64,000 nucleotides of DNA. Source: a virus. Taxonomy: Duplodnaviria; Caudoviricetes. Location of the stretch: IMG/VR virus record IMGVR_UViG_3300020577_007794; one strand, given 5' to 3'. Of the stretch, positions 17,501-63,042 are shown in pieces. Both the position numbers and the translations under genes were made by a program. How positions within the stretch are numbered: position 1 is the stretch's first letter; each line of letters starts with the position of its first letter. Under the pieces are notes generated by a model. The model ran no database searches. It was not told the DNA's origin and worked only from the letters and a program-made list of their open reading frames with translations.

Positions 17501-19089
17501 AATCTTCCCTAACTGATCTTCTTGACTCAGCTGCTGGTAAGTCTTTAGTTGGGATGGCAGAAAAAGGAATAGATGGAAACTTTATTGAACAGTACGCTGC
17601 TCCTGCGTTGAGCCTTTCCTTTATGGGAGAAGTTGCCGGTATTCAGGCACCAACATCGTTTGTTTCCGACCCGAGACTGCGACTTCAAACCTTTGACAGA
17701 TCGGGACCTTTCCAAGGTGCAGTGACAAACGTTCTTGGCTACAATACTACTGAAAGAGAGGTAGAAAACTCTGTCAAGAGTTTGATAGGTCAAACTATGC
17801 TAGCTACCACTTCCAGCAAAGCCCCTGGAGCGGGTGCCTTTATAGAGAATGCAATCGGCCCAGAGGGACTGAACAAAGTAATTGAAAGTGTTTCCTTACT
17901 GAGACAATCAAAAGAGATCAAGGATGACATCCATGCACTCGATGCCCTCTCTACCACACTTTATAGTGACCCCTCTATAAAAAGGTTAGCTGATGCTATA
18001 GATGAATCGGATTTCTTCCACGGAAACATTAAAGAACAGCTTCTTCGTAGAAATGATCTTCTAAGAGAACACAAAGATGCACTAGGTGTTCATGATGTAG
18101 ATATTATTACTGAACGATTTAAAAACATAGTAGAAGAGGAGTTTGCTAAAACTAGTTCTGCATCTTCTGCAACTGCCGCATCTATAAAGAGAGCACAAAA
18201 TCAACTAGGTGATGCCGCACACACTCTATTCTCTGACGTAACACCTGACTCCTTAGATTTTAATGCCATCTCTAAATTAGGTTCAGAGAAGGTTGATGAA
18301 TTAACAAATGATGCACTGAGAAGAATACATGAAATGACCACTCAAGGTACAGGTGGTTCGGATGTATTGCAACATATTTTTGATAAAACAGGTGAACTGA
18401 GAAATGTATACTTTAAGTCTGGTTTATCGCCAAGAGATCAAGCCATAGCCTTAAATGCATTTGTTAAAGAATCTGAAGAAGTCGTTAAATTGGGTTCTCA
18501 GACAACTAACCCTATTGAACTGGTTCATTCAGTGTTCTTGAAGTACCAGAATGCTGCTCAAACAGCAAAAGCTTCCGCCCCAACGTTGACTGAAATGCAA
18601 AGCACTATAGTCAACCAAGCTACCTCACTTGCAGCTAATGCTTCTGAGGATATATCGTTGAAGGAAGTACAACATACTGTTCTTCTTGGCAACAAGATTG
18701 CCAGTGAAATGGAACTCAAAAAAGTTACGGTACCTCTACTAGCTGTAGGAGGTTTGTTAGCTCTTATTGCAGGAAGCAGCAGACCTAAAGAGGAGTATAG
18801 TGGTGGATACGCCAGCAAACAGTCTCCAGGGGTCATAGCGGCCCATTCAGAGATACCCGGCACTGGATCTGGTACCAGAGTCTTTATGGGTCAGGAAGCC
18901 CCCTTCCAAACAACAGTGAATATGACATCCTATGTTCAGTCTGAAAGAGAGAAACAAGCTATACAAACCAAAGTGTACGATATGATTACTGGAACAGCTA
19001 GACCAGTTCAAGTACGAGTAGACAATAAAGACTTTAGAAAGAATGATCACAGAGAAACAGCTATGGAGCAACTAAGACAGGCATTGTAA
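14584..19089 (+). CDS. giant virion/ejection-like protein with embedded DEDDh exonuclease domain
   Basis: 1501 aa, mostly helical-looking; LSLDIE, VGTMTAHDF and HTAMQD motifs; C-terminal hydrophobic helix VPLLAVGGLLALIAG. Confidence 0.6.
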   Translation: MARLDRITNLPTEPGDTVRDKKTKTDYIVQSIVPYVVGGASLYYLLNAYTGKLEQVIANDLKDRDFQPTRKNVERMTPEQVRESRLDTLVRGMKGNEDLLRKLETPEGSVFRDLLLLIDDMDDSQVKEKFRKFGETLVSVTDRVYNSTEILELMQQSLGDSASFYGHEYLSDLAEELSEYTSARTGTNKLSTYAVPRFNATRDIAGFEKVNGKQGFVDRALQYSLSKSERSLSSRKEFVNTVRQTVFNREGFSSPAIRRSAGMNELFDNITDPYSRVAKMVAASLGGKATEETRIVRNITNKILNGDEALTAALIDSDINGIFSNLYRQTTFRTRAGLANKLSARRTSSAARRARPTKRLNVSSLLKGMDRVGDTEKYISISKSSLINDVIGSKSVSVNSSKGIVGTLRQDAVRKKMESLPEVITMPASVLRKQVDSNIVSIEEIELAHNQTPQQISRELRGKMGGRGAAVGYAGAFNHNAKAAFFEVNDKKFDTLEKARTNLLPDQSIYSIKAFNKMGNEIPLFPQVIKVETDMDLVNESYHQAKDESRLAYYTIQNSSGEKSVNLIGSSMNVSIDDQIDRAFAAANTRGRSSLSLDIENNPETGAITEIGVSFRDTEGGYKPHFNFVAGNGESESNAILRLVGRLENADYVGTMTAHDFSTLASRAMALSKTSQSPTMQKNLEAAYYKLLEIEQKAGYDFTVGLTAAGQFGDTPLTLGNISQDYLSPKILGRAETHTAMQDSMDALEIQDKIRVGELQASKAELGTIFQVRSTRVNRDGSFGRLTGFERRGEGSSALFEEMVFNEGRFTTTGSLFELQADGTSQLGAAMRGLIPVGHGEAVAPNVDINEMVQFTSRRMEERGSRIIRGINPLNTSYYDATTRFGIEGGNLFGLHELSVVQQTRSLLGSEKAQEILKNVGSMQFDQIEEAARDLASTVQLGDDASKPGYQARLVESVTNAFTDAQYRQSLTKSSLTDLLDSAAGKSLVGMAEKGIDGNFIEQYAAPALSLSFMGEVAGIQAPTSFVSDPRLRLQTFDRSGPFQGAVTNVLGYNTTEREVENSVKSLIGQTMLATTSSKAPGAGAFIENAIGPEGLNKVIESVSLLRQSKEIKDDIHALDALSTTLYSDPSIKRLADAIDESDFFHGNIKEQLLRRNDLLREHKDALGVHDVDIITERFKNIVEEEFAKTSSASSATAASIKRAQNQLGDAAHTLFSDVTPDSLDFNAISKLGSEKVDELTNDALRRIHEMTTQGTGGSDVLQHIFDKTGELRNVYFKSGLSPRDQAIALNAFVKESEEVVKLGSQTTNPIELVHSVFLKYQNAAQTAKASAPTLTEMQSTIVNQATSLAANASEDISLKEVQHTVLLGNKIASEMELKKVTVPLLAVGGLLALIAGSSRPKEEYSGGYASKQSPGVIAAHSEIPGTGSGTRVFMGQEAPFQTTVNMTSYVQSEREKQAIQTKVYDMITGTARPVQVRVDNKDFRKNDHRETAMEQLRQAL

Positions 19090-19800: not shown

Positions 19801-22800
19801 ATGCTGTCAGCCTCACTCTCAAATCTTATCAAATCAACAACCAACACTGTTAAGGGTCAGTTGGTTAATATAGGTAGATCAGGTACTAAAGTTGTCTTTG
19901 AAATAAAGACTGCTGATAGTAAGATTTATAAGGTATCAGCAACAAGCAGTCAAGCTGCCATAATTGTTAAGACACTTAATCTGTCTCAAAATATCGTGGC
20001 CGCAGCTTTGGGGCCTGGAATAAGTGATGAACTAAGAAGCAACCTTATCTCTGATAAAATTTTTGTTGAGATTCCAGTAGAGAAGTCAATATCAGGCTCT
20101 GAAGCTTCTGTGTTGTCTGGTGGAGAAAGAAAGTCTAGTAGAATAGAAAATCCCACTACAACCAAAGGAAAGGCTGAAGATGAGAAGAAAGAAAAGGAAG
20201 ACTTAACTACAGTCTATCCTACAGATAATTGGCCTGGATTGATGGAAGAATCGAGGTTTTTACCTGTTAAAGTTCCAGGCATACTGGGAACCTCCAACAC
20301 AAGAATAGGTCATGCTGTATTCTCAGCACCAATTCAGTTCTTTACATCTCAAAGAACCAGCTATATAGAGCAGAGCCCCACTCTTAGAGAATCTGGGTCC
20401 ATTAAGAAAGGTACGGGATTAGCCTTTCAAACGTATACCATTAACTATTTTGCTACAGATGCTGAGGAAGTAAGAACCTCTGTAAAGGAGGTTTTTGATC
20501 AACTATTGTTACTGCCGTTTATATCGTGCCAAGGTGGTCCATTTGGGTTTACCCCAGGGGATGGGGACATCCCGTACCACGATTTTGCAGTGAGATCTTA
20601 CTCACTTGCTACTGTGCCTGGGCACCCATCAGTCTTGAATGTGCAGATTTCTCTAGAACCACTGCTATTCGATATTTACTGCCAGGTCAAAGACTGCAAA
20701 GAGAGCCAGTCTGGTTATCAAGTAACCATGGATGACATTGTTTGCTGGCCTCTGGTTAAACTTTGGACAGGTTCTAACGAAAAGTCAACCTATAACCCAA
20801 TTCTAACAACGCTCAACGGCTCACTTAGAATGTCTCTCCCATCTAAAAAGGTTATTAACAGAATTGTAGATGAGGCTGATAAGTTTAAATCAACCTTATT
20901 AAACACAGAGGTTGATACACTAGAGACATTAAAAATTCTCATAACAGAACCTAGAGGTGCTGCTATTTCTTCTAACAATGCTAAATTGGTAGAGTCGGAA
21001 GTACTGGCTGGTTCTGGCAGAAAGATCGCTGTAGTTAAATTTGAAGACCAATTTAACTATTCTAGTCTCCAGCAAAACAGTCAATTTTTAGGACTAGTTA
21101 GATGGGAAAAGTTTTCAGGAAACCGATTCTCCAGTAACGGAACATTCCTTCCACAAAGTGGTACCGTTAATCTTGACAGATCAAGCAGCTTTGTAACAAA
21201 TCAAGTTGGGATAACTAACTATAAAACACGAGGGTCTAACGAGTTTAGTTGGATTGACGTTGTGGCCAGTAAGGGAGACATTTCAACCCTAATTGATCAG
21301 TTCTTGAAAGATGAACAAAAACAAAGAGCTGAACCAACTAGTCAGTTAGGGACGCTGCCCTCAATCAACCCACTAACTGATGACATGATTACCCATATCA
21401 AGAACAACCCATGGGAATACTTTGCACTAGTTCTCGATGTTAAGGTAGAAAATGAATCATCGCTATTAAGATCAATTAATCAGCTTTTGAATCAAGCTAA
21501 AACAAAAGCCACTATTCCGTCTATGTCAGAGAGAAAGAACTTTGATAGGATTTTAGCGGAAGAAGATTTAGTAGATTCTGAAGTCTTTATGGATACAGGG
21601 ATAGGGAATACTGACCTAATAATTGAATCCATAATGTCCACTAGGACTAATAATCTTTCTACACAACATGTTCAGGGATGTCATATACCTAAGCATCAAT
21701 TCTTAGGCGGTGGTACTGCAGAGTTTTCTATAAAAGGAAAATGTCTGTCAAAGACTGCCAAAGAAAGATTAGAGGCACTAAAACTGGAATTTGATAGGAG
21801 ATGTCATCTAACTTTTTCTGGCCCCTCCGCAGGTTCTATAAAGAATAATCCAGATAGCACACCATTTGTACGAGTGGTAAATGAAGTATTCCAACTCATG
21901 GGTGTTGACTTTGTTATGCCTGTATCATTGCGGGTTGACTCTATCCCAGAACAACCTAATGTGTGGGAATTCGAAATGGCACTCCTTGAGTTCAATCCTA
22001 AGACTCAGGCATCTGAAAGAGTTAAATTCTTAGAAACAACTCTTCAAACACAGGCAGCAGTTCTAAATTACCAAGCCCCAGGAGATCTAACCCCAGACCC
22101 TCTCATACAAAAGGCTCAGGAATATTTCTCTTTAGAAGATTCTTTGAAGAGTCTTGAGATACTGCCTGACATGGGTCTCCCTACTAAAACTATTCTTGAT
22201 AAGTGGATAGATATTATTAGAGAAGAGGCTATTTACAGGAAGATCAATAAAGTACCTAGACCTAAATCAACACTCTCAGCCACTGAAGCTGAGGTAGTTG
22301 ACCACCTAGAACACTTCTTCCAAAATAATGACTGCCTTACTATAATGTCCCACTTTAAGGAGAGGGATACTACTAAAAGAACTTCTTACACTGGATCATT
22401 TGTAGACCCGGATTTCTACTTCTTCTATGACCCTAATAAAACTTGGGGAGCATTGCTCGATAAGTTGGCTATGCAGGAATTTGGAAGAAGGCTTCCTGGT
22501 TTCTCCTCCGATAAGGTAGAGGAAAATGGTTTAGAAGCGTTCTATCAAGAATTCTCTCCACTCTTCGGCACCACAACCATGTTCTCTTCAGACTACCTTT
22601 CATCTAGGGCGTCTACCACTGAAGATGAATTGATAAGTGCTGCTAAGAACTCATACCCACCATCTCTAGCAAAACAAGCACATGATGCCACAATGTCTCA
22701 GGTTGAGGGTGCTAAATTTGAACAGTATCCGGGAGCATGGTGGACAACACCAACCAATGTCTCACCTGTTGATGAAACAAAGACATTTGAAGACAGCAAC

Positions 22801-25800
22801 CCAGAATACTTAAAGGGTCCTTACATTAATCCTAATGTTAAGGTATCTGCCTTTGACAGTAATGCTGCTAACACAGGGGTTACCCCAGCTGAGTTTGACG
22901 GAAGTTTAGAAGAGTTTCTTTCTATCGCATGGAGACGAAAACGAGCTGAAGTTAACACTTCATATGCCTTAAAGGATTCTAATATTAGACTTAATGGTGG
23001 CAGTGGTATAGGGTTTGCTTCTAAAGACGGTATTAGTTTCTACAAGAGTTTAATAAACTCAGGCTTCCTCTTTACTGCACAACCTGTGTCAACCTACTCT
23101 GCTATTGGGGGAAGTGTTGGAGACTTTGGAAAGTATAACTATCTTGCTGACAATCTTCCCATGGATGCCAGCTATATCTCTGCACGATTAAACGGAGTCC
23201 TTCCAGTAGGTGGTAAATCCCTAAAAGAGATAGAAGAGGAATCAAAGATAGCCCTCCTTCAGACAGGACATGACGACCTGGTTTCTGAATGGGGATATAT
23301 TCCACGATCAATCCATGCTACAAGAAAATACGCAATCCGATATGGTGGTACAGAGATTGTGGCAACACCATTGGCGGCTTTGGGTGCCACCACTACTGAA
23401 GCTTTGGTTAACACCCAGGATATGTTTAACTCCATTGCTGGTAAATACAGAATTGATCCAAATATTGCTAGAGCTTTCTTCCTAAGAAGAACTGGATTTG
23501 GCACTATAAAGAACGAAACTGTTGACAGCAACGGTGTGGGTTTTGGTGACCTGTCGGTGGATATAGCTTCTAAATTATCAAATGCAGAACAAGTAGAATT
23601 ATTCTGTGAGAAATTTAGAAGAAACTTAGACAGACTTAACAACGTTCCAACACTAGCCTTAGCTGCTACAGTAGCTCAGCTTACATATAAAGGAAGAGCA
23701 CTGTATGTTACTGGTACAGATGGTATAGGTACATCAGAGCCAGGTGGTTCGTCTGATAAGTTTAGACTTAACAAACAGACTTTCTACAACGTCTTGAAAG
23801 AGGCAGCTAGCAAGCTTAATAGTCCAGAAACCAAGTTCTCTATTAAAGGTGCTGAAATCATAACTAATGCTTTGGCCAAGACTGCTTTAGCGTCAGATAT
23901 TGATACGTATTGGACAGCATATATTGAGGTCTGCAGAGTCTTAGGATCAGTGAGACTTCCTGGACAATATCTAAGTAAGGTGGATGCCTACTTCGATCCC
24001 TTCAACGCATTGATTCTTACTGACAGTGAAACTAACACTGAATATGCAAACACCTCCCTTACTCCTTCAGGAAATAAGATAAGGGTATCAATGTCCAGAG
24101 GAGAAGTAACACAAACTACAGCTGACATACAAGTATTGGGTGACCCTAATAATCCTGTCTCAGCTGAGCAGGATGCAGAACTCAGGGTAAGGTTAAAGTT
24201 CGGTCTTGAACCTCATTCAGAAGCTTCTGCATGGGGCTCCATGTTTGACTGTAGACGGTATTCTGTGTTTGGTAGGTTTGTCCAAGCCTATCCGTCATTC
24301 TGTGTTCTCCTTGTAAACGAAGGTTTCTACTTTGCGGAAGGTTCTGTTAAATTGTGGGACCAATTCTACACACGAGCTGGCATCACAAATATTGAAGTAT
24401 TTAAGAGTAGGAAAGACCCTGCGCATAGCTGTTCTGTAACATACTCTAATATGTTCTACTCCATCTCTAGATACACACAAATGGAGGCATTGAGGCAGGA
24501 AATAGCTGTGGATTCTAATAATAGATTCCAGAGTACTTTTGGTCTTGGAGCAGGAACACCGCTCGAGTCTATCGAGGGCGCACTAAGACGTTTCTGGGCC
24601 GCAGCTATTTCTAAGGAACCTGACCCAAGACTCTTGAAGACTTGGGCCACGAACCATCTTAATCAACTAGCACTTACTGCTGGAGCGAGAATCCAAGTAA
24701 GAATGGGTTATGGGTCCAACGCCTCAACCCTTCCAGTAGTATTTAACGGTACAATTATTGATGCACCAATTGGTGGACAAGGAGAAGTAACTATTAAAGC
24801 AGCTGGGGATGGCTTTGAGCTTAATAACCCAGTTACTGATAGACTTGTAAAAGTTGATAATGGTTTTGCATACAGAAGTCAAGAAGGATTTTTAGGGGCT
24901 GGTACCGAACCCAGCCAAATCGTTGTTCAGAGTATGATTCCCAACTCGATGTTCGTAGCTGCTTTAACACAAGGTAGATATGGAGTAACAAGAGTTGCCC
25001 CGCACTTCGGAGAGATAATCTTCGGTGGTACGTCATACTCCATTCCTGAAGTTATGATGAATATGTATGGTGCGTCAAGAAAACACTTGTCACAGTCATT
25101 CAACTTCATCAAGAATACCTTTAACAAAAACGCACTGTACAACTGGGATGACACTACACTAATTAGTGTCTCTGTACATGAACCTACAGTTTGGAAGACT
25201 GCACAAGTCTGCGCCCAAGCTGTTATGGATTACGTCACATCACCAGAACCCTTCCATACAAGATCAACTCTCTTTTTTGGAAGGTGGTGGTACCCATTTA
25301 ACTACGCGTACTCTCCATCTATACTAGGACAAAATAATGTTTCCTCTCTTTACACAGCATCTAGATCTACTACTGCTAACAGCGTACCATCTATTGATGG
25401 CTCTACCCCACGCAATACCTCTCCTAAAGGGTTTCCTACGCAAGAAGCCAAAGGAGTCGAACTTAAGTTCGAAATCCTCCCAGACGGCCCATTTAAGGAA
25501 ACTCTCGAAAATGAGAAAAATGTAGCTACTCTTGTAGACCTTAATGTGTTTGATAAAAAGGAAGACACAGCTACAATCATTGCAGGAGTAGCTGGCCTAT
25601 TCGGACAATCCTTAGCTGCTAATCTTTTAGCAGAACTGAAGAAAAAATATCTAGGGTCCGATGAAAAAGCAAAGTGGGGCTTTGGTATATTCAATCCAAA
25701 GAATGGAGGCCCTACATATGCGCTAGTCATGACCTTAGGTGATGATGGTATTTTACGAACACAAAAACTAAAAGACTTCACGTACACCCCAAGCAGTGCT

Positions 25801-27771
25801 GGTGCTATTTTGACTACAAATGATCAAACAATAGTGGACAATGCAGACCCAACAATGTTGAGGGATGTTGAAAATTTCGTAAAACACCTTTATTGGAAAC
25901 CATATATTCAAGCATGGCCAGCAGTAACAGGACTCAACCTCCTTTCCAACAACATTGTTCCATCTCAAAAAGATGTGTACACTGATGCTAAAGGGCAACA
26001 TACGTTTAATGGTTGGATATCTAGAGATACCCCTGTAAAAACAATCACGTATTGTGTGGACAGTGATATATCACCAAGTACTCGAAGAACTATGTTGGTT
26101 GATACCGGTCTTCTTGTAACAACCGTTCAAAGAGGTTTCACAAATACAGTTGCAAAGGGTGCAGCTAATATAGCTAACTCAGTTCTAGGTTGGACTCCAT
26201 GGACTCCGGTAATTTCTGAGTTTATAAATGAAACTCCAGATACCCCTGCTATCGAAAACTCTGTTGTTAATGCTTTGTGTAATTCTGTTAAGGAAATGTA
26301 TCAAGGATGGTTTTCTATTTCTGGTCAATCAGCTATGAAACCAAACGATCTAGTTCTCCTTAACGATGCCTACAACGGTATGGAGGGGCCTGTTTTTATA
26401 GGGGATGTTATTCATAGAATGGATTCCTCTACAGGCTTTGTTACCTTAATTTCTCCAGACTGTGTAGCTCTCCCACACTCAGCAATTATCGGCCAGAGGT
26501 TGATTGTGGCGCATTCAAGTGGGCCGTTAGCTAAGGCTGGTCAGTATGTAATAGGTTCAGCTGCCTGGGCTGCTATGGCTTTTTCACTTAAAAAGCTTTC
26601 TTCAAATCCATTCTCAGCAAGGATATTGGAGTTAAAAGAGTTAACAAATAGGTACACAGTAGCTGAGGCTTTGGGTTCTAAAAATCTTACTAACACTGTA
26701 AAGACGCAAATTCTTTCTGCTATTGATGCTAGAATGGCGGCAATAGCAGAAGCAAGTAAAAAGGGATTATTCTCGTCTCTACGAATAGAACAACTTAAGA
26801 AAACAAGACAGGCAATCGAGGCCTCAGAAAATCTTTCTGCAGTCTTCCTTTATGCTAATGAGTCTGGTATAAACGTTGGACAGATTCTCAGGGATATTCC
26901 AGGTGTTAGCCTTGATTTTGAGAGATTGGTTTCTATTATCCATAATTCTCAAAATCTTTACATAGAGATGTTGAGAGAACTAAAAGCAAACCCAGCTACA
27001 TCTCAGCTATCTGAGCAGGAAATTATTAGGCTAGTAGAAAATAAGGTAGTAAAACAGCTAAATCAAACTTTGATTGATGCTGATCTAGCTGTTGCAGGAG
27101 ATTCTGCAACTGATGGGCTATCTGAAATATCTGCTCTCCTAAGAAATGAATCAAAACTGAGACCATTAATTGATCCAGGAACTATCCAAGTTACCGATGA
27201 AGTTATTGAAGAAGCCTGGGCAGCTGCTAGATTCAAAGCAGCTACATCACCTGTTAGACTTGTAAATATGTTGAAGGGGGCAGAGGTTGCGCTGTCTGAT
27301 AGTGTCAGATTGAGGCGAGCAACAAAACTTCTTTCCAAATCTATATCAGGATTGTCATTGGCTTTGTCAGCAATTGGTCCCGGAGTAATTGCTAGACTAG
27401 CATTTGAAGTGGTGAGATTTAGCATCGGTCAAACAGTTATACAAGGTATTAACTCTAGACTTATGGCTAGACAGGCTGTAAAAATATTTCCACTTAGAAG
27501 TATTCAATCCAATGGTACCTCAATTCCGTTTGTAGCTGGAATTAGAGGACATCAAGGAGCAGTAGTTGGGGACGACCCAGGCTACTTCGATAAACTTCTC
27601 AGTGGTAAATTTGAACCCAGCATCCCCTTTACAGATGGTTTGAAGCTTTCATTCATTCTGTCTGCTCTACTTGGTGTTGAGATACCTGAGTACGGTAATA
27701 CGGATGTTGACAATCTTTACATCCAAAAGATGAAAGAAGTGGAGGATAAGAGAGTAAATGGAAGAAGGTAA
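19801..27771 (+). CDS. baseplate hub-like giant tail protein
   Basis: 2656 aa; RIQVRMGYG...VVFNGTI and G...MKPNDLVLL...VIHRMD...GFVT hub motifs; degenerate SLT-like segment. Confidence 0.7.
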   Translation: MLSASLSNLIKSTTNTVKGQLVNIGRSGTKVVFEIKTADSKIYKVSATSSQAAIIVKTLNLSQNIVAAALGPGISDELRSNLISDKIFVEIPVEKSISGSEASVLSGGERKSSRIENPTTTKGKAEDEKKEKEDLTTVYPTDNWPGLMEESRFLPVKVPGILGTSNTRIGHAVFSAPIQFFTSQRTSYIEQSPTLRESGSIKKGTGLAFQTYTINYFATDAEEVRTSVKEVFDQLLLLPFISCQGGPFGFTPGDGDIPYHDFAVRSYSLATVPGHPSVLNVQISLEPLLFDIYCQVKDCKESQSGYQVTMDDIVCWPLVKLWTGSNEKSTYNPILTTLNGSLRMSLPSKKVINRIVDEADKFKSTLLNTEVDTLETLKILITEPRGAAISSNNAKLVESEVLAGSGRKIAVVKFEDQFNYSSLQQNSQFLGLVRWEKFSGNRFSSNGTFLPQSGTVNLDRSSSFVTNQVGITNYKTRGSNEFSWIDVVASKGDISTLIDQFLKDEQKQRAEPTSQLGTLPSINPLTDDMITHIKNNPWEYFALVLDVKVENESSLLRSINQLLNQAKTKATIPSMSERKNFDRILAEEDLVDSEVFMDTGIGNTDLIIESIMSTRTNNLSTQHVQGCHIPKHQFLGGGTAEFSIKGKCLSKTAKERLEALKLEFDRRCHLTFSGPSAGSIKNNPDSTPFVRVVNEVFQLMGVDFVMPVSLRVDSIPEQPNVWEFEMALLEFNPKTQASERVKFLETTLQTQAAVLNYQAPGDLTPDPLIQKAQEYFSLEDSLKSLEILPDMGLPTKTILDKWIDIIREEAIYRKINKVPRPKSTLSATEAEVVDHLEHFFQNNDCLTIMSHFKERDTTKRTSYTGSFVDPDFYFFYDPNKTWGALLDKLAMQEFGRRLPGFSSDKVEENGLEAFYQEFSPLFGTTTMFSSDYLSSRASTTEDELISAAKNSYPPSLAKQAHDATMSQVEGAKFEQYPGAWWTTPTNVSPVDETKTFEDSNPEYLKGPYINPNVKVSAFDSNAANTGVTPAEFDGSLEEFLSIAWRRKRAEVNTSYALKDSNIRLNGGSGIGFASKDGISFYKSLINSGFLFTAQPVSTYSAIGGSVGDFGKYNYLADNLPMDASYISARLNGVLPVGGKSLKEIEEESKIALLQTGHDDLVSEWGYIPRSIHATRKYAIRYGGTEIVATPLAALGATTTEALVNTQDMFNSIAGKYRIDPNIARAFFLRRTGFGTIKNETVDSNGVGFGDLSVDIASKLSNAEQVELFCEKFRRNLDRLNNVPTLALAATVAQLTYKGRALYVTGTDGIGTSEPGGSSDKFRLNKQTFYNVLKEAASKLNSPETKFSIKGAEIITNALAKTALASDIDTYWTAYIEVCRVLGSVRLPGQYLSKVDAYFDPFNALILTDSETNTEYANTSLTPSGNKIRVSMSRGEVTQTTADIQVLGDPNNPVSAEQDAELRVRLKFGLEPHSEASAWGSMFDCRRYSVFGRFVQAYPSFCVLLVNEGFYFAEGSVKLWDQFYTRAGITNIEVFKSRKDPAHSCSVTYSNMFYSISRYTQMEALRQEIAVDSNNRFQSTFGLGAGTPLESIEGALRRFWAAAISKEPDPRLLKTWATNHLNQLALTAGARIQVRMGYGSNASTLPVVFNGTIIDAPIGGQGEVTIKAAGDGFELNNPVTDRLVKVDNGFAYRSQEGFLGAGTEPSQIVVQSMIPNSMFVAALTQGRYGVTRVAPHFGEIIFGGTSYSIPEVMMNMYGASRKHLSQSFNFIKNTFNKNALYNWDDTTLISVSVHEPTVWKTAQVCAQAVMDYVTSPEPFHTRSTLFFGRWWYPFNYAYSPSILGQNNVSSLYTASRSTTANSVPSIDGSTPRNTSPKGFPTQEAKGVELKFEILPDGPFKETLENEKNVATLVDLNVFDKKEDTATIIAGVAGLFGQSLAANLLAELKKKYLGSDEKAKWGFGIFNPKNGGPTYALVMTLGDDGILRTQKLKDFTYTPSSAGAILTTNDQTIVDNADPTMLRDVENFVKHLYWKPYIQAWPAVTGLNLLSNNIVPSQKDVYTDAKGQHTFNGWISRDTPVKTITYCVDSDISPSTRRTMLVDTGLLVTTVQRGFTNTVAKGAANIANSVLGWTPWTPVISEFINETPDTPAIENSVVNALCNSVKEMYQGWFSISGQSAMKPNDLVLLNDAYNGMEGPVFIGDVIHRMDSSTGFVTLISPDCVALPHSAIIGQRLIVAHSSGPLAKAGQYVIGSAAWAAMAFSLKKLSSNPFSARILELKELTNRYTVAEALGSKNLTNTVKTQILSAIDARMAAIAEASKKGLFSSLRIEQLKKTRQAIEASENLSAVFLYANESGINVGQILRDIPGVSLDFERLVSIIHNSQNLYIEMLRELKANPATSQLSEQEIIRLVENKVVKQLNQTLIDADLAVAGDSATDGLSEISALLRNESKLRPLIDPGTIQVTDEVIEEAWAAARFKAATSPVRLVNMLKGAEVALSDSVRLRRATKLLSKSISGLSLALSAIGPGVIARLAFEVVRFSIGQTVIQGINSRLMARQAVKIFPLRSIQSNGTSIPFVAGIRGHQGAVVGDDPGYFDKLLSGKFEPSIPFTDGLKLSFILSALLGVEIPEYGNTDVDNLYIQKMKEVEDKRVNGRR

Positions 27772-35622: not shown

Positions 35623-38223
35623 ATGGTTAATACAAATAAAGTTCTCTATAATGATGAAGCTATGAAGGCCCTCAAGCAGGGTGCGGATAAGCTAGCTGAA
35701 GCTGTAAAAGTGACTCTTGGCCCCGGTGGTCACAATGTTATTATTGATCAGGGCAGTGAATGGCTCCCACCAATCGTAACTAAAGACGGTGTTACTGTTG
35801 CCAGAGAGCTGCGAGTTAATGGTGGACCTGAACAGTTGGGTGCCCAGATTATCAAACAGGCAGCATCAAAAACCAATGATTCTGCGGGAGACGGCCCACA
35901 ACCTCTTTACAGTAAAGTCCTAACCCCTAGTGGCTTTGTTCCTATGGGTTCTCTAAAAGTAGGGGATGAGCTTTGCGGTACCGGCGGTACGATACAAACA
36001 GTTCTAGCTGTCTACCCAAAAGGTGAAAAAGAAATTTATAAAGTCATATTCACCGATGGGCGGGAGGTTGAATGTTGTGAGGATCATCTTTGGTTTTTGA
36101 AAAAGGCTTCCAGAGGGACTGAGGTGATTATGACCACTAAGGAAATTCTTTCTAGTGGTGTACACAAATTTAACGGAGATGGGCATTATCTCCACAAATT
36201 TTATACTCCCAGGACTTTTGCAGAATTTTCGAACAAAAAATTCGTTCTGGATCCTTATCTTGTAGGGCTACTCATAGGCGATGGGGCTCTAACTGGTACT
36301 GGTTCTATTGAATTGTCTTTAGGGCCGAATGATAGAGATGTAATTGATAGAATTACACTACCTGAAGGGCTGTCTCTTAGCTGGAGATTTGTTGAAAAGA
36401 AACACTACTACAGAGTTAAAATAAGGGGAAAAACTCCAAATGGTGAAACTATCCATGATCTCGTACAAAAAATTGGGCTATTGGGGTGCAATAGTGGAAC
36501 TAAATTTATCCCATATGATTATCTTTTTTCAGATCTAAAATCGAGAGAAGCACTACTCAGGGGGTTGTCCGACACAGATGGGCACATTAATAACAGAGGG
36601 TTGCTAGAGTATTCAACTATAAGCCCACAGTTGGGGGAAGACATGCTTACTCTCTTGAGAAGTCTAGGTAAAGCTGCATCATGCGTTCTTCTAAAAAGAA
36701 AACCTAACTCATCATACTCCAATACTTCCATATACAGAATCAATGAATTAAAGGGAGATACTTTTGGTAATGGTATTCATGATGTCATACCTACGGGTGA
36801 ATTTACCCGAATGCAGTGCATAAAGGTAAGTAATGAGGATAATCTGTATTTTACAGATAATTTCATTGTTACACATAACACAACTACTTCTACAGTTCTA
36901 GCACAAGAAATTCTTAACCAAGGCATCAAGCATCTTGGTACAGGAAAGAATGGTATCAATATTAAGAGAGGTATTGATCTTGCAACCCAGATGGTTGTGG
37001 AATACCTTTCCAAAAACTCCACGTCTATCTCTCTGAAGGATATGGCTATGGTAACCCATATTGCTACGGTCTCTGGTAATGACCCAGAAGTTGGAAAGAT
37101 GGTTGCCACAGCCTACAAAGAAGTGGGTGAAAACGGTCTAGTTGGTTTTGAAGAAACCAGAGCTAGTGAGACTGTTATTGAAATCCACAAGGGCATGTCT
37201 TTCGATAGAGGATACCCAACCCCTGCTTTTGTAACAGATCCCAAGAGAATGGTATGCGAGTTGCGAGAAGCTAACGTTCTTGTTTTTGAAAGACGAATTT
37301 CTTCAGCGCAAGAACTAGTTGGATTCCTTACCGAATACCACAAAAACTTCAAAGAAACTCCCCTTCTTATCATCACTTCAGATATTGATGGAGATGCACT
37401 CGCTACTCTTGCAGCTAACAAGCTATCCAATGGTATGCTTTGGATTGGTATTAAAGCTCCAGGTTTCGGGAAGAGAGCTTCTGACTGGATGGAGGATATT
37501 GCGGCTTTGACCGGTGCTAAGGTCATTGCTGAAGTAAGCGCAGCTAAGCTTGAAAATGTTCCAATGGATGTTTTGGGTAAAGCAAAATCCATCACTATCA
37601 ACAAAGAGGAAACTTCTATTGTTGGTGGATACGGTGATCCAGCGTCAGTCGCTGAATACGTTGCCAACCTTAAAGAGAGACTTGTTAGTGAAACCAGTGC
37701 CCAGGAAATTGAATGGCTAAAGCTGAGGCTTGCTAAACTTGATGGAAGCATTGCTCTTATTAAGATTGGTGCGCAGACTGATGCTGAAATGAAGGAAAAG
37801 AAATACAGATTTGAAGATGCTATTAACGCAACTAAAGCTGCTCTTTCCCATGGTATAGTTCCGGGTGGTGGTGTCGCACTTCTTAATGCTTTTGAGGATG
37901 TACTTGCTAGAAAGCCAGAATTGTCACTAGAAGAGTCGGTAGGTTTTGATATCCTTCTTATGAGTCTTCTTATACCTCTTAAGACTATTGCACAGAATTC
38001 AGGTATCAGTGGGGAGCATGTTATTGCTGTGCTACAGACAAGCAAGAGACATAAGAATTATGGCTACAATGCTAGAACAGGATATTACTGTGACCTTGTT
38101 AAAGAAGGTATTATTGACCCAGTAAAGGTGACTACATCTGCGGTTCTTAATGCAGCTTCGGCAGCTGGAACCTTGCTTACAACAAGAGCAGTTATTTACG
38201 GTGACCCTGTTGAACCTAAGTAA
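35623..38223 (+). CDS. groEL: phage chaperonin GroEL precursor containing an intein (538 aa after splicing)
   Basis: AVKVTLGP, TKDGVTVA, AGDG|TTT, GMSFDRGY, KAPGFG, EDA.NAT.AA, GIVPGGG, GIIDP.KV. Confidence 0.95.
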   Translation: MVNTNKVLYNDEAMKALKQGADKLAEAVKVTLGPGGHNVIIDQGSEWLPPIVTKDGVTVARELRVNGGPEQLGAQIIKQAASKTNDSAGDGPQPLYSKVLTPSGFVPMGSLKVGDELCGTGGTIQTVLAVYPKGEKEIYKVIFTDGREVECCEDHLWFLKKASRGTEVIMTTKEILSSGVHKFNGDGHYLHKFYTPRTFAEFSNKKFVLDPYLVGLLIGDGALTGTGSIELSLGPNDRDVIDRITLPEGLSLSWRFVEKKHYYRVKIRGKTPNGETIHDLVQKIGLLGCNSGTKFIPYDYLFSDLKSREALLRGLSDTDGHINNRGLLEYSTISPQLGEDMLTLLRSLGKAASCVLLKRKPNSSYSNTSIYRINELKGDTFGNGIHDVIPTGEFTRMQCIKVSNEDNLYFTDNFIVTHNTTTSTVLAQEILNQGIKHLGTGKNGINIKRGIDLATQMVVEYLSKNSTSISLKDMAMVTHIATVSGNDPEVGKMVATAYKEVGENGLVGFEETRASETVIEIHKGMSFDRGYPTPAFVTDPKRMVCELREANVLVFERRISSAQELVGFLTEYHKNFKETPLLIITSDIDGDALATLAANKLSNGMLWIGIKAPGFGKRASDWMEDIAALTGAKVIAEVSAAKLENVPMDVLGKAKSITINKEETSIVGGYGDPASVAEYVANLKERLVSETSAQEIEWLKLRLAKLDGSIALIKIGAQTDAEMKEKKYRFEDAINATKAALSHGIVPGGGVALLNAFEDVLARKPELSLEESVGFDILLMSLLIPLKTIAQNSGISGEHVIAVLQTSKRHKNYGYNARTGYYCDLVKEGIIDPVKVTTSAVLNAASAAGTLLTTRAVIYGDPVEPK
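35896..36879 (+). mobile_element. class 3 intein with LAGLIDADG homing endonuclease, 328 aa
   Basis: Starts PQPLYSKVLTP, ends IVTHN before Thr; block B CCEDHLW, block F MQCIKV; LLIGDG and GLSDTDG endonuclease motifs. Confidence 0.93.
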
Positions 38224-48787: not shown

Positions 48788-51032
48788 GAGAGGCCAGCTA
48801 TCAACATACAGCCCCGAAACATCAACAGTAGATAGTTTCGCAATCAAGAAAAACTACACCTCCCTAGAGATTGATAGTCTAGAATCCTCAGACCATTTCA
48901 ATCATTATTTTGATGCGTGTATCCAAATTGAAAAGCAGCTTCCTAAGTTTTTAGGGACCAATATCAAAGCCTTCTACCCATTAACTTCGGATGAAATAAA
49001 CTCATCAGTGTTTAAACAGGTAGAGGGTAACCAGATACTGCTAACAACTCAAGTAACATCCGGTACAATGGTTGGGAACGGGCAGGAATTCTCTGTTACT
49101 ATTCCTGACATATTCGGGTCTAACCCGTTCAGGGACAACTCCTTCAGCCTTAGTGTCAGAGCAGATGAGTTTAACTACGGAGCAGAGGGTGTATTCGCAA
49201 ATAAGAATCCAAACAGTTCAGATGTTTGGAACACTCTTTCAAATCAGAACCACTTTGTTTGTTCAGTTCAACCATCCAGCGGGCTGGAGGGAAGAACTTT
49301 TACAGTTAAAGTTAGTGCAGTGGGGCGAACTCCACTACCAGGTTCTCAGGTTTCGTTCTCAGAAAGATTCTCAGAAGCAACTCTTTCAAGCTCCACCCTA
49401 CCAATAGTAGGTGGTAAAGACTTTTCTTTAACCCCTACAAGTACAGGAATCTTCCCAAGAAGATTGTCCTCCTCTAGATACACTATAGATTACTACGGAG
49501 TATCTGGCGGCTTTGTATACCCAAATAACCCAGATCAGACTCCTTTTGCTGTAGCAGTTAAAAACATTCCACTAGGTGGGTTTAGTCTTCTTAGCACCCC
49601 AGATGACAGGGTTCTTGCTCTTACAAGCAATACCACAGCAGCAAGGTATGAAACCACTATGGGTGGTTACTTGTACGGTATAGCTGCCAGATCTGGAATT
49701 CTTTATGGAGTGGAAGGTTTGGATAGACCGGACGACCAGTTTGTTCAATTTAGGCTTTGTGGGTTTGCTGCTGATTCTCCATTTTTTGGAAGAAACTTTG
49801 GGTGTTTTGGCCCAGCAGTTAGAATGAATGGACCAGCAAACAATGCCAGCTTCTACGGCTTGGTTTTCGGAGAAGCTGCTGGTACGTTAACAACCTCCAC
49901 CTCTGGGCTGCCCGCAGACGAAACAGCTCCAAGAATTGCATATCTAGCTAAGTTTAAGAACGTAAATCTGTCCCAGGTATTAGACGAGACTGTGACATTG
50001 AAAGGTTCTGGTACTGCCCCCTATGTCTCTACAACAGTCTCTGGGGCTACTATTTTAACTGGAACATCTACATTGGTGTTCTCTGCTAGTGACATGTCTG
50101 TTTCATACAGACTAGCTGCGTCAGGCAACACAATTATTCTGCAACAAGAAGCTGCTTCAGGATTGTTTACAAACCTCCTGACCTACACAGACACAAACAC
50201 AGTGTCCAACGGGTACCCAGGCTTCTTCTCTGTAGGAAAGAGTGTGCCACAAACCGCGTCTACTAAGAGTAATAGATGGCTGTTATTTGACTCCCTTAAA
50301 ATGGGTGATTTAGCGACTGGTGCCACGATACCTATTCAAATTAGAAGTTTCTTTTCTAAAACAGGTATGGCAAGTTCATACAATATATTCTCTTCATTCA
50401 CCACCAATGAAACTATTATAGATGATAATACAACCCCGACTGCATCTGGTGTTGTGTTAAGGTGGAATGATACTCAGAACCATGTCTACAGAGGTTGTGA
50501 TGTAAACCCAAGTCTGCCATGGTTCCTTGGTCTGGGAGGCTCTTCTAGGGCAATACCCGAACCTGGAAGCCTTCTCCTACAACTCACCTCCTACCAATTC
50601 AATGCGTGGAATATTCCGATAGTCCCTATATCAGTTCTTCTCGTAGCTCCCTCTGGTTACAATATTGCAAACGGTAACTATGTAGCTAAGTTTAGAATAA
50701 CAACAGGAGATGCTTCAGGTTTTTACACCAATATCAACGGACAAGATTTGAGAACTAAATTTGAATTTGGTATTTCAGATTCCCCGACCGCAGTAGTGAT
50801 ATCATCCTCTTATGAATCTAATAAGATACAGTATATAAATGTACCTCTCTCGCAGATGACATTTAGTTCCCAAACTTTGGGTTCACCACAGGTAGTTGAT
50901 TTCGTAATACCTATGAATCAATTTAACATAACCCCAAGATTCAATGCTTGCACTTTCTACATAAAGGGTGAGATGCTTCTTAGGGGTACACAAAACATTC
51001 ACATTTCCGACATAGTGATCGGGGAGCCTTAA
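48774..51032 (+). CDS. tail fibre/receptor-binding-like protein
   Basis: SDHFNHYFDACIQIEK motif; lectin-like beta region ending GYPGFF. Confidence 0.5.
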   Translation: MSLYRRGQLSTYSPETSTVDSFAIKKNYTSLEIDSLESSDHFNHYFDACIQIEKQLPKFLGTNIKAFYPLTSDEINSSVFKQVEGNQILLTTQVTSGTMVGNGQEFSVTIPDIFGSNPFRDNSFSLSVRADEFNYGAEGVFANKNPNSSDVWNTLSNQNHFVCSVQPSSGLEGRTFTVKVSAVGRTPLPGSQVSFSERFSEATLSSSTLPIVGGKDFSLTPTSTGIFPRRLSSSRYTIDYYGVSGGFVYPNNPDQTPFAVAVKNIPLGGFSLLSTPDDRVLALTSNTTAARYETTMGGYLYGIAARSGILYGVEGLDRPDDQFVQFRLCGFAADSPFFGRNFGCFGPAVRMNGPANNASFYGLVFGEAAGTLTTSTSGLPADETAPRIAYLAKFKNVNLSQVLDETVTLKGSGTAPYVSTTVSGATILTGTSTLVFSASDMSVSYRLAASGNTIILQQEAASGLFTNLLTYTDTNTVSNGYPGFFSVGKSVPQTASTKSNRWLLFDSLKMGDLATGATIPIQIRSFFSKTGMASSYNIFSSFTTNETIIDDNTTPTASGVVLRWNDTQNHVYRGCDVNPSLPWFLGLGGSSRAIPEPGSLLLQLTSYQFNAWNIPIVPISVLLVAPSGYNIANGNYVAKFRITTGDASGFYTNINGQDLRTKFEFGISDSPTAVVISSSYESNKIQYINVPLSQMTFSSQTLGSPQVVDFVIPMNQFNITPRFNACTFYIKGEMLLRGTQNIHISDIVIGEP

Positions 51033-54000
51033 TGAACGAATACGCAAAAGTCTTTTTAACCACATTCCCATGGGCTAAGACAGCATACCAATATATGCTG
51101 GGTCTTAATACTGCGCCTGAGGTTTCTGTAAAAATAGAAGATCTAGCTTCCCCAGTATCAACTAAGGTTAACTCTTCAGACCAGATCGCTATAGAATCTT
51201 CATTAGATTGGAATAATTTCAGCATACATTCTGTATCGGACCTAGCAGGTCTTTACTCATCTATTGATCGAGCTCATCAGTATGTTGAAGCTTTGTCACA
51301 AAGATACAATGCGAATATAGGTGAGGGGGAAACTAGGCTTCTAAAATTGGAGGCAGCTTTAAGAGCCATAAGATCCTCTATCGCATCACCCGCGAATAAT
51401 TCAGTATCTTTCTCAGGTGGAGATAGTAGTTGGGTTGACCCATCTCCTAGATTCTATGTTAACTCCCCTATGCTGACTTTTGCACAGGAAGAGGGTTGTT
51501 ACAGACTACCAGACACTGGTATGTTTAGTTCTATCAGATCTAATGGTGGGTTTGCAGGTACTGCAATTATCGAGAAATCCTTAGCACCTATAGAACAAAG
51601 AGGCACTCTAAACGATGTAACCGATGGCTCAAGAGCCTCTTTCTGGATGGGCACTTCTTATTTCCCGTCTATGGTTAGGGTATCAAGCGGAGATGTAGCA
51701 TGGCTACCATCTTCCTACACACATGGTTCGGCAGTTCTCTTAACTTACTACCTTGATAGACCTACATTAGTGGGCGAAGTTTTTATTGATCCAGTAACCA
51801 CAGAACCATTCAAACTCCTCTCCGTTTCCTGGACCCCTCTAAACGAAAGAAACTGCCTACTCAATCCAGGCTTTACAGCGGCAGCAACAGGGTGGACACT
51901 CAGCCATACAACTTGGATGGCCTCAGGGCTGGGAGCTGTTAGCACGTTAATTGACAGCACCTCTGGAAAAGTTAGTCAGAGCTTTAATATTCAAAACTCG
52001 TACACCCTATCTTTGAGTGGGGTTCCGACAGCTTCAGGTATAGCTACCGGCCAAAGATTTGAATTGCAATATGCCATAGCTGCTGAGGGAGACTGCTCAG
52101 CTGGTGCCAGAATAACTTGGTTCAATTCAGCTGGAGCAGCCATAGGTTCAGATCAATTAGCTGAGACGTTACCAGCTTTCTATAAATCCTCGAGACTTGT
52201 TTCTTACTCACCTACAGGAAGTGTTAGTGGAAGGGTTGATTTCCAAATCTTTTCAGCTACTACATCAGCCTCAGCTTTCGTATCCCAAGCTAAATTGTTT
52301 GCTGGTGAACAAAGATGGCAATGTAACGAAACAATAGAGAAGCCCACAACCATCTCCCTTCCAAGATCTATCACAACTTCTAGATTTAGTTTTGTTCTAC
52401 AACAAACTTCCCCTAGAAGAGAAACCTTAAACAGACAGGTACCTTCAGAAACACTAAGCCCTATAACAGCTCCAAGAGAAGTATCAACTGAATTGGTGAA
52501 CTCTGTAAATCAATTGGTTGACAGAACAAACTCTTCGGGGGTAGGCTCAACTGTTTTTGCCTATAGATTCGGAATGAAGGAACTTGATTTGAGATACAGG
52601 GAATTTGTTCCTAGAGCAAGTCTTGTTTCTATTCCTTTAGAGACGAAGAAAGAGATCAGAAATATATGGGTCACTGCAGATGTAGGACAATATCAAACTG
52701 ATGGGCTTGGGTTCTATATCATTCCTTTTGAAAAGGATGAATCATACCAACTAGCTGTAAAGGCTTTTAGGGTTGGAGATATTGATGCATCCGGGGAGAC
52801 TATAAGAAACCAAGGTGACATAGTTTCAATCTTCACGAGTGAAGAAGAAGAAGCAGGGTGGGCGGCTAACGCAGACCATAGAATCATTACTGACCCCACA
52901 AGAATCACAGAAACCTTTGACGGTACAGATCGAGATGGTAAGGTTATTCTCAAAAGAGTGCCACACCTACGAAGAGTTAAAATGCGAGATATTAATTCTT
53001 GGCTCTCTTCTTACTCTATCTGGCCGACATACTTCGACCCTAATCTAGAAACACCAACAGGTATAGGAAGCCAACTTCTAAGAGAAGCCATTAAGGATGG
53101 TATTCTTAAAGAGGGTGGAAGAACTGGTACTACCGGTGATACACAAATAAACGGAATACCTCTTGGTATGCCAGAAACACTGGAAGTAACCAGAGATGAT
53201 ATTGTCAGCACCGAAGGTTACCTTCCAATAAAACTAACAATATCTACAAGCAAGTGGACTGCATATCCAGACACATTTGGAAAACCTGATTCAGCTAGAG
53301 TAAGAGACGTATTGAAGGAACTTCTTGAACTGACAGCAGTCTCTGAAACAACCACAAGCATTACAGCCAACTACATTACTTATGAGCAGTTCATAGCTAG
53401 AACTAAAGTTTCTGAACTGTTCTTTGGTGGTAACTTTAATAACAATCTGTGGAATGGTATAACACCAACCATGACTATTAAAGAGTACCTAGACAGACAG
53501 CAGAGTATGAATGTTGGTATAGGCTCTATTGAACAGACTGCTAAGAGAGAGTATGATTTAAGAAAAGCTAACGGCACTCTTGCTAAAGACGAAAACACTA
53601 CAGAGACCAGGACATCCAAACTTAACAGTGGGGACTCTTATAAAACAAGATTCAAACCTGTGGTTACTGGACCAATGGGTACAGTGTTTAGGGCGTATTG
53701 GTACGATCCTGATACCCAAGAAGCTAGACTTATTCCACCTAATGATTATAAGTTGGAAGCAAATTCTGGGATAATCACACTCAAAAATACAGCCCCAGCA
53801 TCTAACTTCACAGACATTGTTGCAGATTACAAATACATATCCAAATCTGAAGAGGAAGACTTCTTCAGCGAGGCTATTGCTTTTGTGAATTCAACAGCCA
53901 GTGGAAGCGAGGATACAGGTATTGTAAGTAGGCATCTGCCAATAACAAGGAATATGACTGACTACAATACTGGAAGGGTTCCAACTCTTAGAGGTCCAGA

Positions 54001-54262
54001 TTTTGACAGAATGAGTAGAACCTACTACCCAGTTATAGAGTACTACGTAACACCTGAAGGGGATATTCAGTGTAGCAGGGACTTCTTCAAATATGGAGAC
54101 ATACCAGCAACTGTAACAGTTGAGTATGAAACATTGGGGGTCAAACCTAGACTAAAAGTAGAGTCTTACCGACCATCAGGTCCAACTGTTACACCTGCCT
54201 TATTAGGGGCTTCTATGAGAACAAAAGAAGGCTCTCCTTCTCCACTTAGGGAGATTCAATAA
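51032..54262 (+). CDS. large baseplate/fibre structural protein
   Basis: N-terminal coiled coil, EEGCYRLP, DG...FW and LLNPGF..W carbohydrate-binding-like segment. Confidence 0.6.
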   Translation: MNEYAKVFLTTFPWAKTAYQYMLGLNTAPEVSVKIEDLASPVSTKVNSSDQIAIESSLDWNNFSIHSVSDLAGLYSSIDRAHQYVEALSQRYNANIGEGETRLLKLEAALRAIRSSIASPANNSVSFSGGDSSWVDPSPRFYVNSPMLTFAQEEGCYRLPDTGMFSSIRSNGGFAGTAIIEKSLAPIEQRGTLNDVTDGSRASFWMGTSYFPSMVRVSSGDVAWLPSSYTHGSAVLLTYYLDRPTLVGEVFIDPVTTEPFKLLSVSWTPLNERNCLLNPGFTAAATGWTLSHTTWMASGLGAVSTLIDSTSGKVSQSFNIQNSYTLSLSGVPTASGIATGQRFELQYAIAAEGDCSAGARITWFNSAGAAIGSDQLAETLPAFYKSSRLVSYSPTGSVSGRVDFQIFSATTSASAFVSQAKLFAGEQRWQCNETIEKPTTISLPRSITTSRFSFVLQQTSPRRETLNRQVPSETLSPITAPREVSTELVNSVNQLVDRTNSSGVGSTVFAYRFGMKELDLRYREFVPRASLVSIPLETKKEIRNIWVTADVGQYQTDGLGFYIIPFEKDESYQLAVKAFRVGDIDASGETIRNQGDIVSIFTSEEEEAGWAANADHRIITDPTRITETFDGTDRDGKVILKRVPHLRRVKMRDINSWLSSYSIWPTYFDPNLETPTGIGSQLLREAIKDGILKEGGRTGTTGDTQINGIPLGMPETLEVTRDDIVSTEGYLPIKLTISTSKWTAYPDTFGKPDSARVRDVLKELLELTAVSETTTSITANYITYEQFIARTKVSELFFGGNFNNNLWNGITPTMTIKEYLDRQQSMNVGIGSIEQTAKREYDLRKANGTLAKDENTTETRTSKLNSGDSYKTRFKPVVTGPMGTVFRAYWYDPDTQEARLIPPNDYKLEANSGIITLKNTAPASNFTDIVADYKYISKSEEEDFFSEAIAFVNSTASGSEDTGIVSRHLPITRNMTDYNTGRVPTLRGPDFDRMSRTYYPVIEYYVTPEGDIQCSRDFFKYGDIPATVTVEYETLGVKPRLKVESYRPSGPTVTPALLGASMRTKEGSPSPLREIQ

Positions 54263-62424: not shown

Positions 62425-63042
62425 ATGAAGTACAAACCACTTAATAACTATCTATCCTTGAAAATGATAGACAAAGCAGAGCAGGATATTCTTGTTCCTG
62501 ATCTCCTAGCTGCAGAGGATAGATGGGCAAATGTTTTAGAAGTAGGTGTAGGTGTTCCAGATATGAAAGGCAATCTTATAACTAGTTTGCTTGCTCCTGG
62601 AGATATTGCATATGTTATGGCACACGGTAGAGAGTTGGTCAGACTTAACTCTGCAGGGTTGGGGGAAGACATCTTCACAGCCAGTGAGCTCGATGTTATG
62701 TGCAAAGCCGAATTAGTTAAAGAAGAAGATAAGGAAGAAATTGTAGACGTGAAAATAGTTCCCCTTGGCATGTTTGTTGAGATTGAGAAGGTAGAACCAC
62801 CGAAGCCCAGTGTTCTTATAGTAGAGAGTAAAGCAGTTCCACCAACAGTTGCTGTAGTAAAGTCTGTGGGTGTTGGCTGGAAAGACTTCTTCGGAAACGA
62901 AGTTAAGCACCAAGTTAAGCCTGGGGATAAAATTGTTTTCGATCCTTACAAGGCCATGGTGTTAGATCTAGCACCTTTAGGCATAAAAGAGAAAAGATAC
63001 CTAATCCTTCATGGTGATATATGGGGCAAGGTAGAGGAATAA
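62425..63042 (+). CDS. groES: tandem two-domain co-chaperonin (GroES x2, Cpn20-like)
   Basis: KPLNNYL...VLEVGVG...LAPGD...ELDVM and VPLGMFV...VKSVGVG...VKPGDKIVF...GDIWGKV. Confidence 0.82.
   Translation: MKYKPLNNYLSLKMIDKAEQDILVPDLLAAEDRWANVLEVGVGVPDMKGNLITSLLAPGDIAYVMAHGRELVRLNSAGLGEDIFTASELDVMCKAELVKEEDKEEIVDVKIVPLGMFVEIEKVEPPKPSVLIVESKAVPPTVAVVKSVGVGWKDFFGNEVKHQVKPGDKIVFDPYKAMVLDLAPLGIKEKRYLILHGDIWGKVEE

Follow-up and report, generated by a model that had tools for sequence, protein, structure and literature searches.

Why should the ATP-binding loop of a phage chaperonin be interrupted by 328 amino acids (aa) that leave its reading frame open? The question was raised by a groEL gene in a 64,000-nucleotide stretch of DNA (the window) from the Caudoviricetes record IMGVR_UViG_3300020577_007794 of IMG/VR; window coordinates given below all refer to its + strand, and a slash within a sequence marks an insertion point. 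In GroEL, Asp87 and Thr89-91 of the phosphate loop bind phosphates. Our analysis indicated that the insert is, with high probability, a functional and mobile class 3 intein that carries a LAGLIDADG homing endonuclease and sits between the Gly and the Thr of the GDG/TTT loop of a phage GroEL.

The gene is a single uninterrupted open reading frame (ORF) at 35623..38223, which encodes an 866-aa GroEL (Cpn60) precursor and remains open through the insert. Pfam searches matched Cpn60_TCP1 (PF00118, 4.3e-57) on both sides of the insert, and Hom_end (PF05204) and LAGLIDADG_3 (PF14528) within it. The 328 residues occupy 35896..36879, opening with the CCA codon of Pro1 at 35896 and closing with the AAC codon of Asn328 at 36879, in the context ...SAGDG/PQPLYSK...FIVTHN/TTTSTVLA. 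They are preceded by an N-extein of 91 aa (35623..35895) ending in AGDG, the first half of the GDGTTT phosphate-binding loop, and followed by a C-extein of 447 aa plus the stop codon (36880..38223), which begins with Thr+1 (TTTSTVLA). A natural intein-free allele, P0140 (538 aa), falls into a 90%-identity cluster with the window protein and reads AGDG-TTTSTVLA, the N- and C-exteins of the two proteins being 97% and 92% identical, respectively. Since P0140 lacks the insert, both boundaries are fixed, the Pro is assigned to the insert, and the spliced product is predicted to have 538 aa; joining the exteins of this Cpn60 protein yields an intact AGDGTTTS, the same as in the 538-aa allele. Thus, the insertion of 328 aa at GDG/TTT, as proposed in an earlier note that was made from the letters and their ORFs, was confirmed to the base by the ORF, the DNA and P0140. 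Chance is no issue for calling this sequence an intein, since the intein region alone matched 119 other proteins combining GroEL and intein with E values of 1e-100 to 1e-185.

We then assigned the insert to a splicing class. Class 3 inteins are defined by a non-nucleophilic residue 1 that co-varies with Trp at B:12, Cys at F:4 and Thr at G:5 (the WCT triplet), together with Thr or Ser at +1 (PMC2807308), and by all five of these sequence features the insert is a class 3 intein. Residue 1 is Pro, not the Cys, Ser or Thr of class 1, and Pro is found in 131 of the 132 unique GroEL inteins from metagenomes on which all conservation counts below are based. Block B (ECCEDHLW, 36070..36093) contains Cys60 (B:6), Cys61 (B:7), His64 (B:10) and Trp66 (B:12), and the His and the Trp are present in every member (132/132). 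The same holds for Cys308 (F:4), the predicted branch-point nucleophile, in block F (RMQCIKV, 36808..36828; Cys codon at 36817..36819), and for each of Thr326 (G:5), His327 and Asn328 in VTHN, which closes block G (36868..36879). Thr at +1, as seen here, recurs in 24/24 distinct GroEL junctions, and the C-extein opens with Thr in all 68 matches that were parsed (TTT in 54, TTS in 14). These data bear out the class 3 signature (DHLW, MQC and VTHN, with Thr+1) described in the earlier note. The note had also pointed to the initiating Pro. Pro1 is not new, as the class 3 prototype, the MP-Be DnaB intein of mycobacteriophage Bethlehem, likewise has Pro1 and Thr+1 and splices efficiently in experiments (PMC2807308). 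One GroEL intein of the family (L027:3001-3972, +) starts with Cys (CQPYHSK) and keeps W, C and T; it is of class 3 type although its first residue is a nucleophile, and resembles the few exceptions of this kind that have been listed (PMC2807308).

The register of these motifs was checked against solved structures. In a phmmer search of the PDB, the N-terminal half of the HINT domain (35896..36210, roughly residues 1-105, with blocks A and B) matched gp41-1 (6riz, 5e-10) and, within class 3, Msm DnaB1 (6bs8, 7e-4) over its N-terminal 70 residues. A natural 139-aa mini-intein without an endonuclease, which occupies the same GroEL site in another locus (L080:3001-3417), aligned end to end with MchDnaB-1 (6rix, 1e-8) and Msm DnaB1 (6bs8, 2e-7), placing HLW on the HQW of both structures, RCIKV on their RCVEV and THN on THN; through this mini-intein, His64-Leu-Trp66 and Cys308 of the window were matched to their counterparts in 6rix and 6bs8. 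An AlphaFold2 model of the window intein, built on an alignment of 42 relatives, reached a mean predicted local distance difference test score of 93.6 (pLDDT) and a predicted template modelling score of 0.91 (pTM). Foldseek searches with this model returned PI-SceI first (E 4.6e-16, TM 0.69), followed by TliVMA, PhoVMA and PI-PfuI, and the HINT part of the model matched gp41-1, MchDnaB-1 and Msm DnaB1.

The middle of the intein (about residues 106-290, 36211..36765) is occupied by a LAGLIDADG homing endonuclease domain, which matched that of PI-SceI (6e-6). As the earlier note had it, both motifs are present: motif 1, LVGLLIGDGAL, covers residues 122-132 (36259..36291), and motif 2, LLRGLSDTDGHI, residues 220-231 (36553..36588). 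Asp129 lies under the GDG of PI-SceI motif 1 and Asp228 under the DSDG of motif 2, and these residues are kept in 127/132 and 129/132 family members (96-98%). The two-motif, PI-SceI type of domain was thus found by alignment, by Pfam (PF05204/PF14528) and by fold. In the closest pairs, the ratio of nonsynonymous to synonymous substitution rates (dN/dS) of the endonuclease domain is 0.05-0.13, similar to that of the exteins, and as dS is saturated in all pairs, these values are to be read only as being well below 1. The purifying selection that they indicate, along with the occurrence of alleles both with and without the intein, lends indirect support to the predicted site-specific cleavage of intein-less alleles.

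To what extent the element moves was approached through its alleles and relatives. P0090 (847 aa, with intein) and P0135 (521 aa, without) have exteins that are 99-100% identical, and this pair, along with the window protein and P0140, supports an ongoing, probably recent, gain or loss of the intein. These near-identical alleles with and without the insert also fit the idea in the earlier note that the endonuclease could act on intein-free alleles. The GroEL site is also seen in further states, including the mini-intein described above, frameshifted copies (L025, L026 and L029) and a copy without its C-terminal half (L069), and such copies are evidence that the putative homing cycle has reached its later stages in the family. 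A degenerate junction pattern for the DNA of an intein-free allele gave no match in viral contigs, and no loci related to P0140 were found in viral or metagenome contigs.

Inteins about 30% identical to that of GroEL were found in phage PhoH, DnaB, SNF2 and ResIII helicases and in a portal protein. Those of PhoH occupy two sites, Walker A GK/A and LPG/P, and those of the portal protein are inserted at FFENGA/A or FFENGA/C; L037:1552-4176 and L056 are among the loci with such PhoH or portal inteins. In a tree of 65 rows (25 GroEL and 40 non-GroEL inteins), the GroEL inteins formed one clade with an SH-aLRT (Shimodaira-Hasegawa-like approximate likelihood ratio test) value of 100 and a branch length of 0.92, and the weakly placed sister clade consisted of the PhoH LPG/P inteins, which are likewise Pro-initiated. 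This topology fits with the GroEL site having been colonised once, from the pool of phage class 3 inteins. Over 7,875 pairs, in a sample picked by intein similarity, the mean identity was 53% for inteins versus 30% for exteins (rho 0.13), figures that favour spread at depth. The intein tree is in agreement with the extein tree for shallow clades, dN is similar in close pairs, and extein clades were rejected only marginally and post hoc in approximately unbiased (AU) tests (p 0.042 and 0.016). Frequent horizontal transfer is therefore not claimed; our reading is that the intein spread early over diverged GroELs and was then mainly inherited vertically, with sporadic gain and loss. The G+C content (GC) is 0.36-0.40 for the intein and 0.42-0.49 for the exteins, a difference too slight to argue for a foreign origin.

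By homology to the MP-Be DnaB and Msm DnaBi1 inteins, splicing would proceed as follows. Until it occurs, the precursor is expected to be inactive, since the unspliced insert splits the ATP site. Cys308 (F:4) would attack the Gly91-Pro1 bond such that the N-extein is held as a branched thioester; the N-extein would then be transferred to Thr+1; cyclisation of Asn328 would free the intein; and an O-to-N acyl shift would give a normal 538-aa GroEL reading ...AGDGTTTS.... Splicing is most likely constitutive. The freed endonuclease, with Asp129 and Asp228, would cut the intein-less groEL of related phages infecting the same cell, and the intein would be copied in as the cut allele is repaired by recombination.

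The anatomy of the element, its boundaries, the conservation of its catalytic residues, its fold and its presence/absence polymorphism are established. What weighs against the reading of a functional, mobile class 3 intein is that the class 3 chemistry is deduced from motifs, that the same is true of the activity and target of the endonuclease and of homing, and that, as the shallow intein and extein trees agree and dN is similar, most of the present distribution may be vertical rather than a result of frequent homing. The motifs also leave some room for a non-splicing relic accompanied by a dead phage GroEL, or for a route other than class 3, such as a class 2-like direct attack by Thr+1, and the frameshifted and truncated copies noted above demonstrate that the family does decay. 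Yet the window copy has an open frame and keeps every catalytic residue, and the WCT triplet co-varies with a non-nucleophilic residue 1, just as class 3 is defined (PMC2807308). Hence we regard a relic or another route as extremely unlikely.

Two further proposals, both developed from ideas in the earlier note, concern what the intein might do for the phage. One holds that splicing is conditional, such that the intein allows the phage GroEL to become active only under a suitable redox state or temperature; until then Cys308 might, for instance, be trapped in a disulfide. A precedent exists in the class 3 Msm DnaBi1 intein, in which H2O2 blocks splicing reversibly by way of a disulfide between Cys48 and Cys118, one that the F:4 Cys takes part in (PMC6195587). 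The GroEL inteins possess three further near-invariant cysteines, namely Cys27 (131/132; 35974..35976), Cys60 at B:6 (132/132) and Cys61 at B:7 (118/132; both at 36073..36078), and in the MP-Be model B:7 adjoins the N-terminal scissile bond (PMC2807308). However, near-identical GroELs without the intein exist, so the intein is dispensable to the phage, and an endonuclease with residues that are conserved and under selection speaks for a selfish element. Cys60 is moreover invariant in 21/21 non-GroEL relatives (PhoH, helicase, SNF2 and DnaB, in the 42-row alignment), and it is thus a trait of the family rather than an adaptation to GroEL. Conditional splicing is, in our judgement, quite improbable. 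The other proposal is that the endonuclease also, or mainly, attacks the groEL of the bacterial host and so serves as a host-shutoff weapon, the site AGDG/TTTATVLA being nearly universal. Many phage alleles have the bacterial consensus as their flanking amino acids, and the DNA on either side of the insertion point differs in its wobble positions among 24 loci, differences with which the enzymes have to cope. Furthermore, clones of the MP-Be DnaB intein were toxic in E. coli, for which the authors suspected cleavage of host dnaB (PMC2807308). Nevertheless, a pattern scan of 185,579 prokaryote genomes, which reaches close relatives only, yielded one full and one truncated copy of the GroEL intein, and we consider an attack on host groEL very unlikely. 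Taking the bolder forms of the two proposals as one, we hold it improbable that Cys27, Cys60, Cys61 and Cys308 form a redox or metal trap that switches the chaperonin on post-translationally, or that the endonuclease also cuts host groEL. If a trap of this kind were real, the intein would not be merely selfish; if host groEL were cut, the infected cell would depend on the phage chaperonin. The reading that we retain, an intact homing intein of class 3 whose host protein is new, is mechanistically ordinary.

How new is this host protein? A search with the intein region returned 813 proteins at E<=1e-3, and the best 120 of these 813 all contain Cpn60, with intein identities of 50-83%. Under a strict pattern, 68/68 parsed matches read GDG/PQP...THN/TT(T or S). 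About 35 loci with the same arrangement were found in IMG/VR (32 of them being L001-L032), on contigs of up to 391 kb. By comparison, none of 50,697 GenBank phage records matched both the GroEL exteins and the intein, and 0 of 1,033 matching records covered >=80% of the precursor; the best intein match in this set is 35% identical, and matches lie in terminase, helicase or PhoH genes. On the contig of the full copy from the prokaryote scan, terminase and portal genes are present, indicating that it is phage DNA binned into a metagenome-assembled genome (MAG); neighbours of the truncated copy (L086) gave no PHROGs match. In searches of open-access papers and bioRxiv, no paper was found that names GroEL, Cpn60 or a chaperonin as an intein host, and the supplement of a survey of 1,701 class 3 inteins makes no mention of GroEL as a host. 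These data indicated that the intein family is common in uncultured phages, and that the host protein and the insertion site are new to the literature searched and seem to be undescribed. The earlier view that a chaperonin is an unusual host thus held for that literature and for GenBank phages but failed for metagenomes, where inteins at this very site are common (132 unique); its reservation that they might have been described already found no support in the papers searched.

With this finding, a chaperonin joins the proteins listed as hosts of inteins. The rule of insertion into nucleotide-binding loops is widened as well, as relatives are found at Walker A GK/(S or T) and the GroEL intein occupies an unrelated phosphate loop, GDG/TTT. 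The family is large and has to date been found only in uncultured phages. Its mini-intein, frameshifted and intein-free alleles provide a ready series for study of the homing cycle, and protein engineering can draw on its members for class 3 inteins with Pro1 and Thr+1. How inteins are understood to work is unchanged.

The surroundings of the gene are those of a phage. The window is phage DNA with all genes on one strand, among them that of a RuvC-like resolvase, directly upstream of groEL, and those of a virion structural protein and a baseplate wedge protein. The IMG/VR record comprises 194,459 bp, with an estimated completeness of 84%. A Cpn10 co-chaperonin ORF of 205 aa is present at 62425..63042; residues 127-197 of its product clearly match Cpn10/GroES (1.1e-11), the N-terminal half includes a second, weakly Cpn10-like stretch (5e-3), and the two may make up a tandem co-chaperonin of the kind known from plastids as Cpn20. 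Very long ORFs are located at 6802..12975 (2,057 aa), 14584..19089 (1,501 aa), 19801..27771 (2,656 aa) and 51032..54262 (1,076 aa), for which Pfam gave no match at all.

Further inteins of the same phage were observed outside the window. The terminase large subunit (1,028 aa, identified with PHROGs; L093:772-3858, - strand, equal to G000:C1:180771-183857) seems to hold two abutting inteins at Walker A with zero extein residues between them, in the layout ...RRAGK/ELPHYE...EHEW...MSCITV...TPTHN/CLTYDN...STDH...VVHN/SYSF. The first bears the marks of class 3 (Glu1, W, C, T), with an endonuclease that has decayed, and the second is of class 1 (Cys1). Cys1 of the second would have to act as the +1 residue of the first; we know of no described example of tandem inteins of this kind. 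A 522-aa P-loop (AAA_28-like) protein (L091:1384-2952, + strand, equal to G000:C1:16751-18319) contains a class 1 LAGLIDADG intein at GAGK/CFSRD...LTHN/SS. Adding up the GroEL, P-loop and tandem terminase inteins, the phage has at least four.

Comparison with known systems places the GroEL intein as follows. Phage-encoded GroELs are known from the literature for Pseudomonas phages EL and OBP. The exteins of the window are likewise phage Cpn60, with the best GenBank phage GroELs being 40-43% identical, and the intein is absent from the GenBank matches, which include the GroELs of Flavobacterium phage immuto and of Cellulophaga phages. PI-SceI of yeast VMA1 (1ef0, 1vde and 1lws) shares with the intein the HINT plus LAGLIDADG architecture and both catalytic Asp positions, whereas it belongs to class 1, having Cys1 and Cys+1, contains an extra DNA-recognition region and is 16% identical. 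The best PDB sequence match to the N-terminal HINT half (5e-10), gp41-1 (6qaz/6riz), comes from an environmental cyanophage-like helicase and also has Cys at B:6; in contrast to the GroEL intein, it is split in nature and belongs to class 1 (Cys1), and the structure 6riz is that of an engineered form (C1A, F65W, D107C). Msm DnaBi1 (6bs8) and MchDnaB-1 (6rix/6riy) have a HINT fold and a WCT triplet in register with the 139-aa mini-intein and with our model, but they lack an endonuclease, start with another residue, reside in the P-loop of mycobacterial DnaB and have DxxH in block B; Cys48, the redox partner in Msm DnaBi1, is not conserved in the GroEL intein. By published features, rather than by sequence alignment, the GroEL intein is also close to MP-Be DnaB (PMC2807308), which differs in having Ser at B:7, where the GroEL intein has Cys, and in residing in a DnaB helicase instead of the GDG/TTT loop of GroEL. 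The two inteins are of similar size (about 330-340 aa), and both are phage-borne LAGLIDADG elements with Pro1, the WCT triplet, a His-Asn end and Thr+1.

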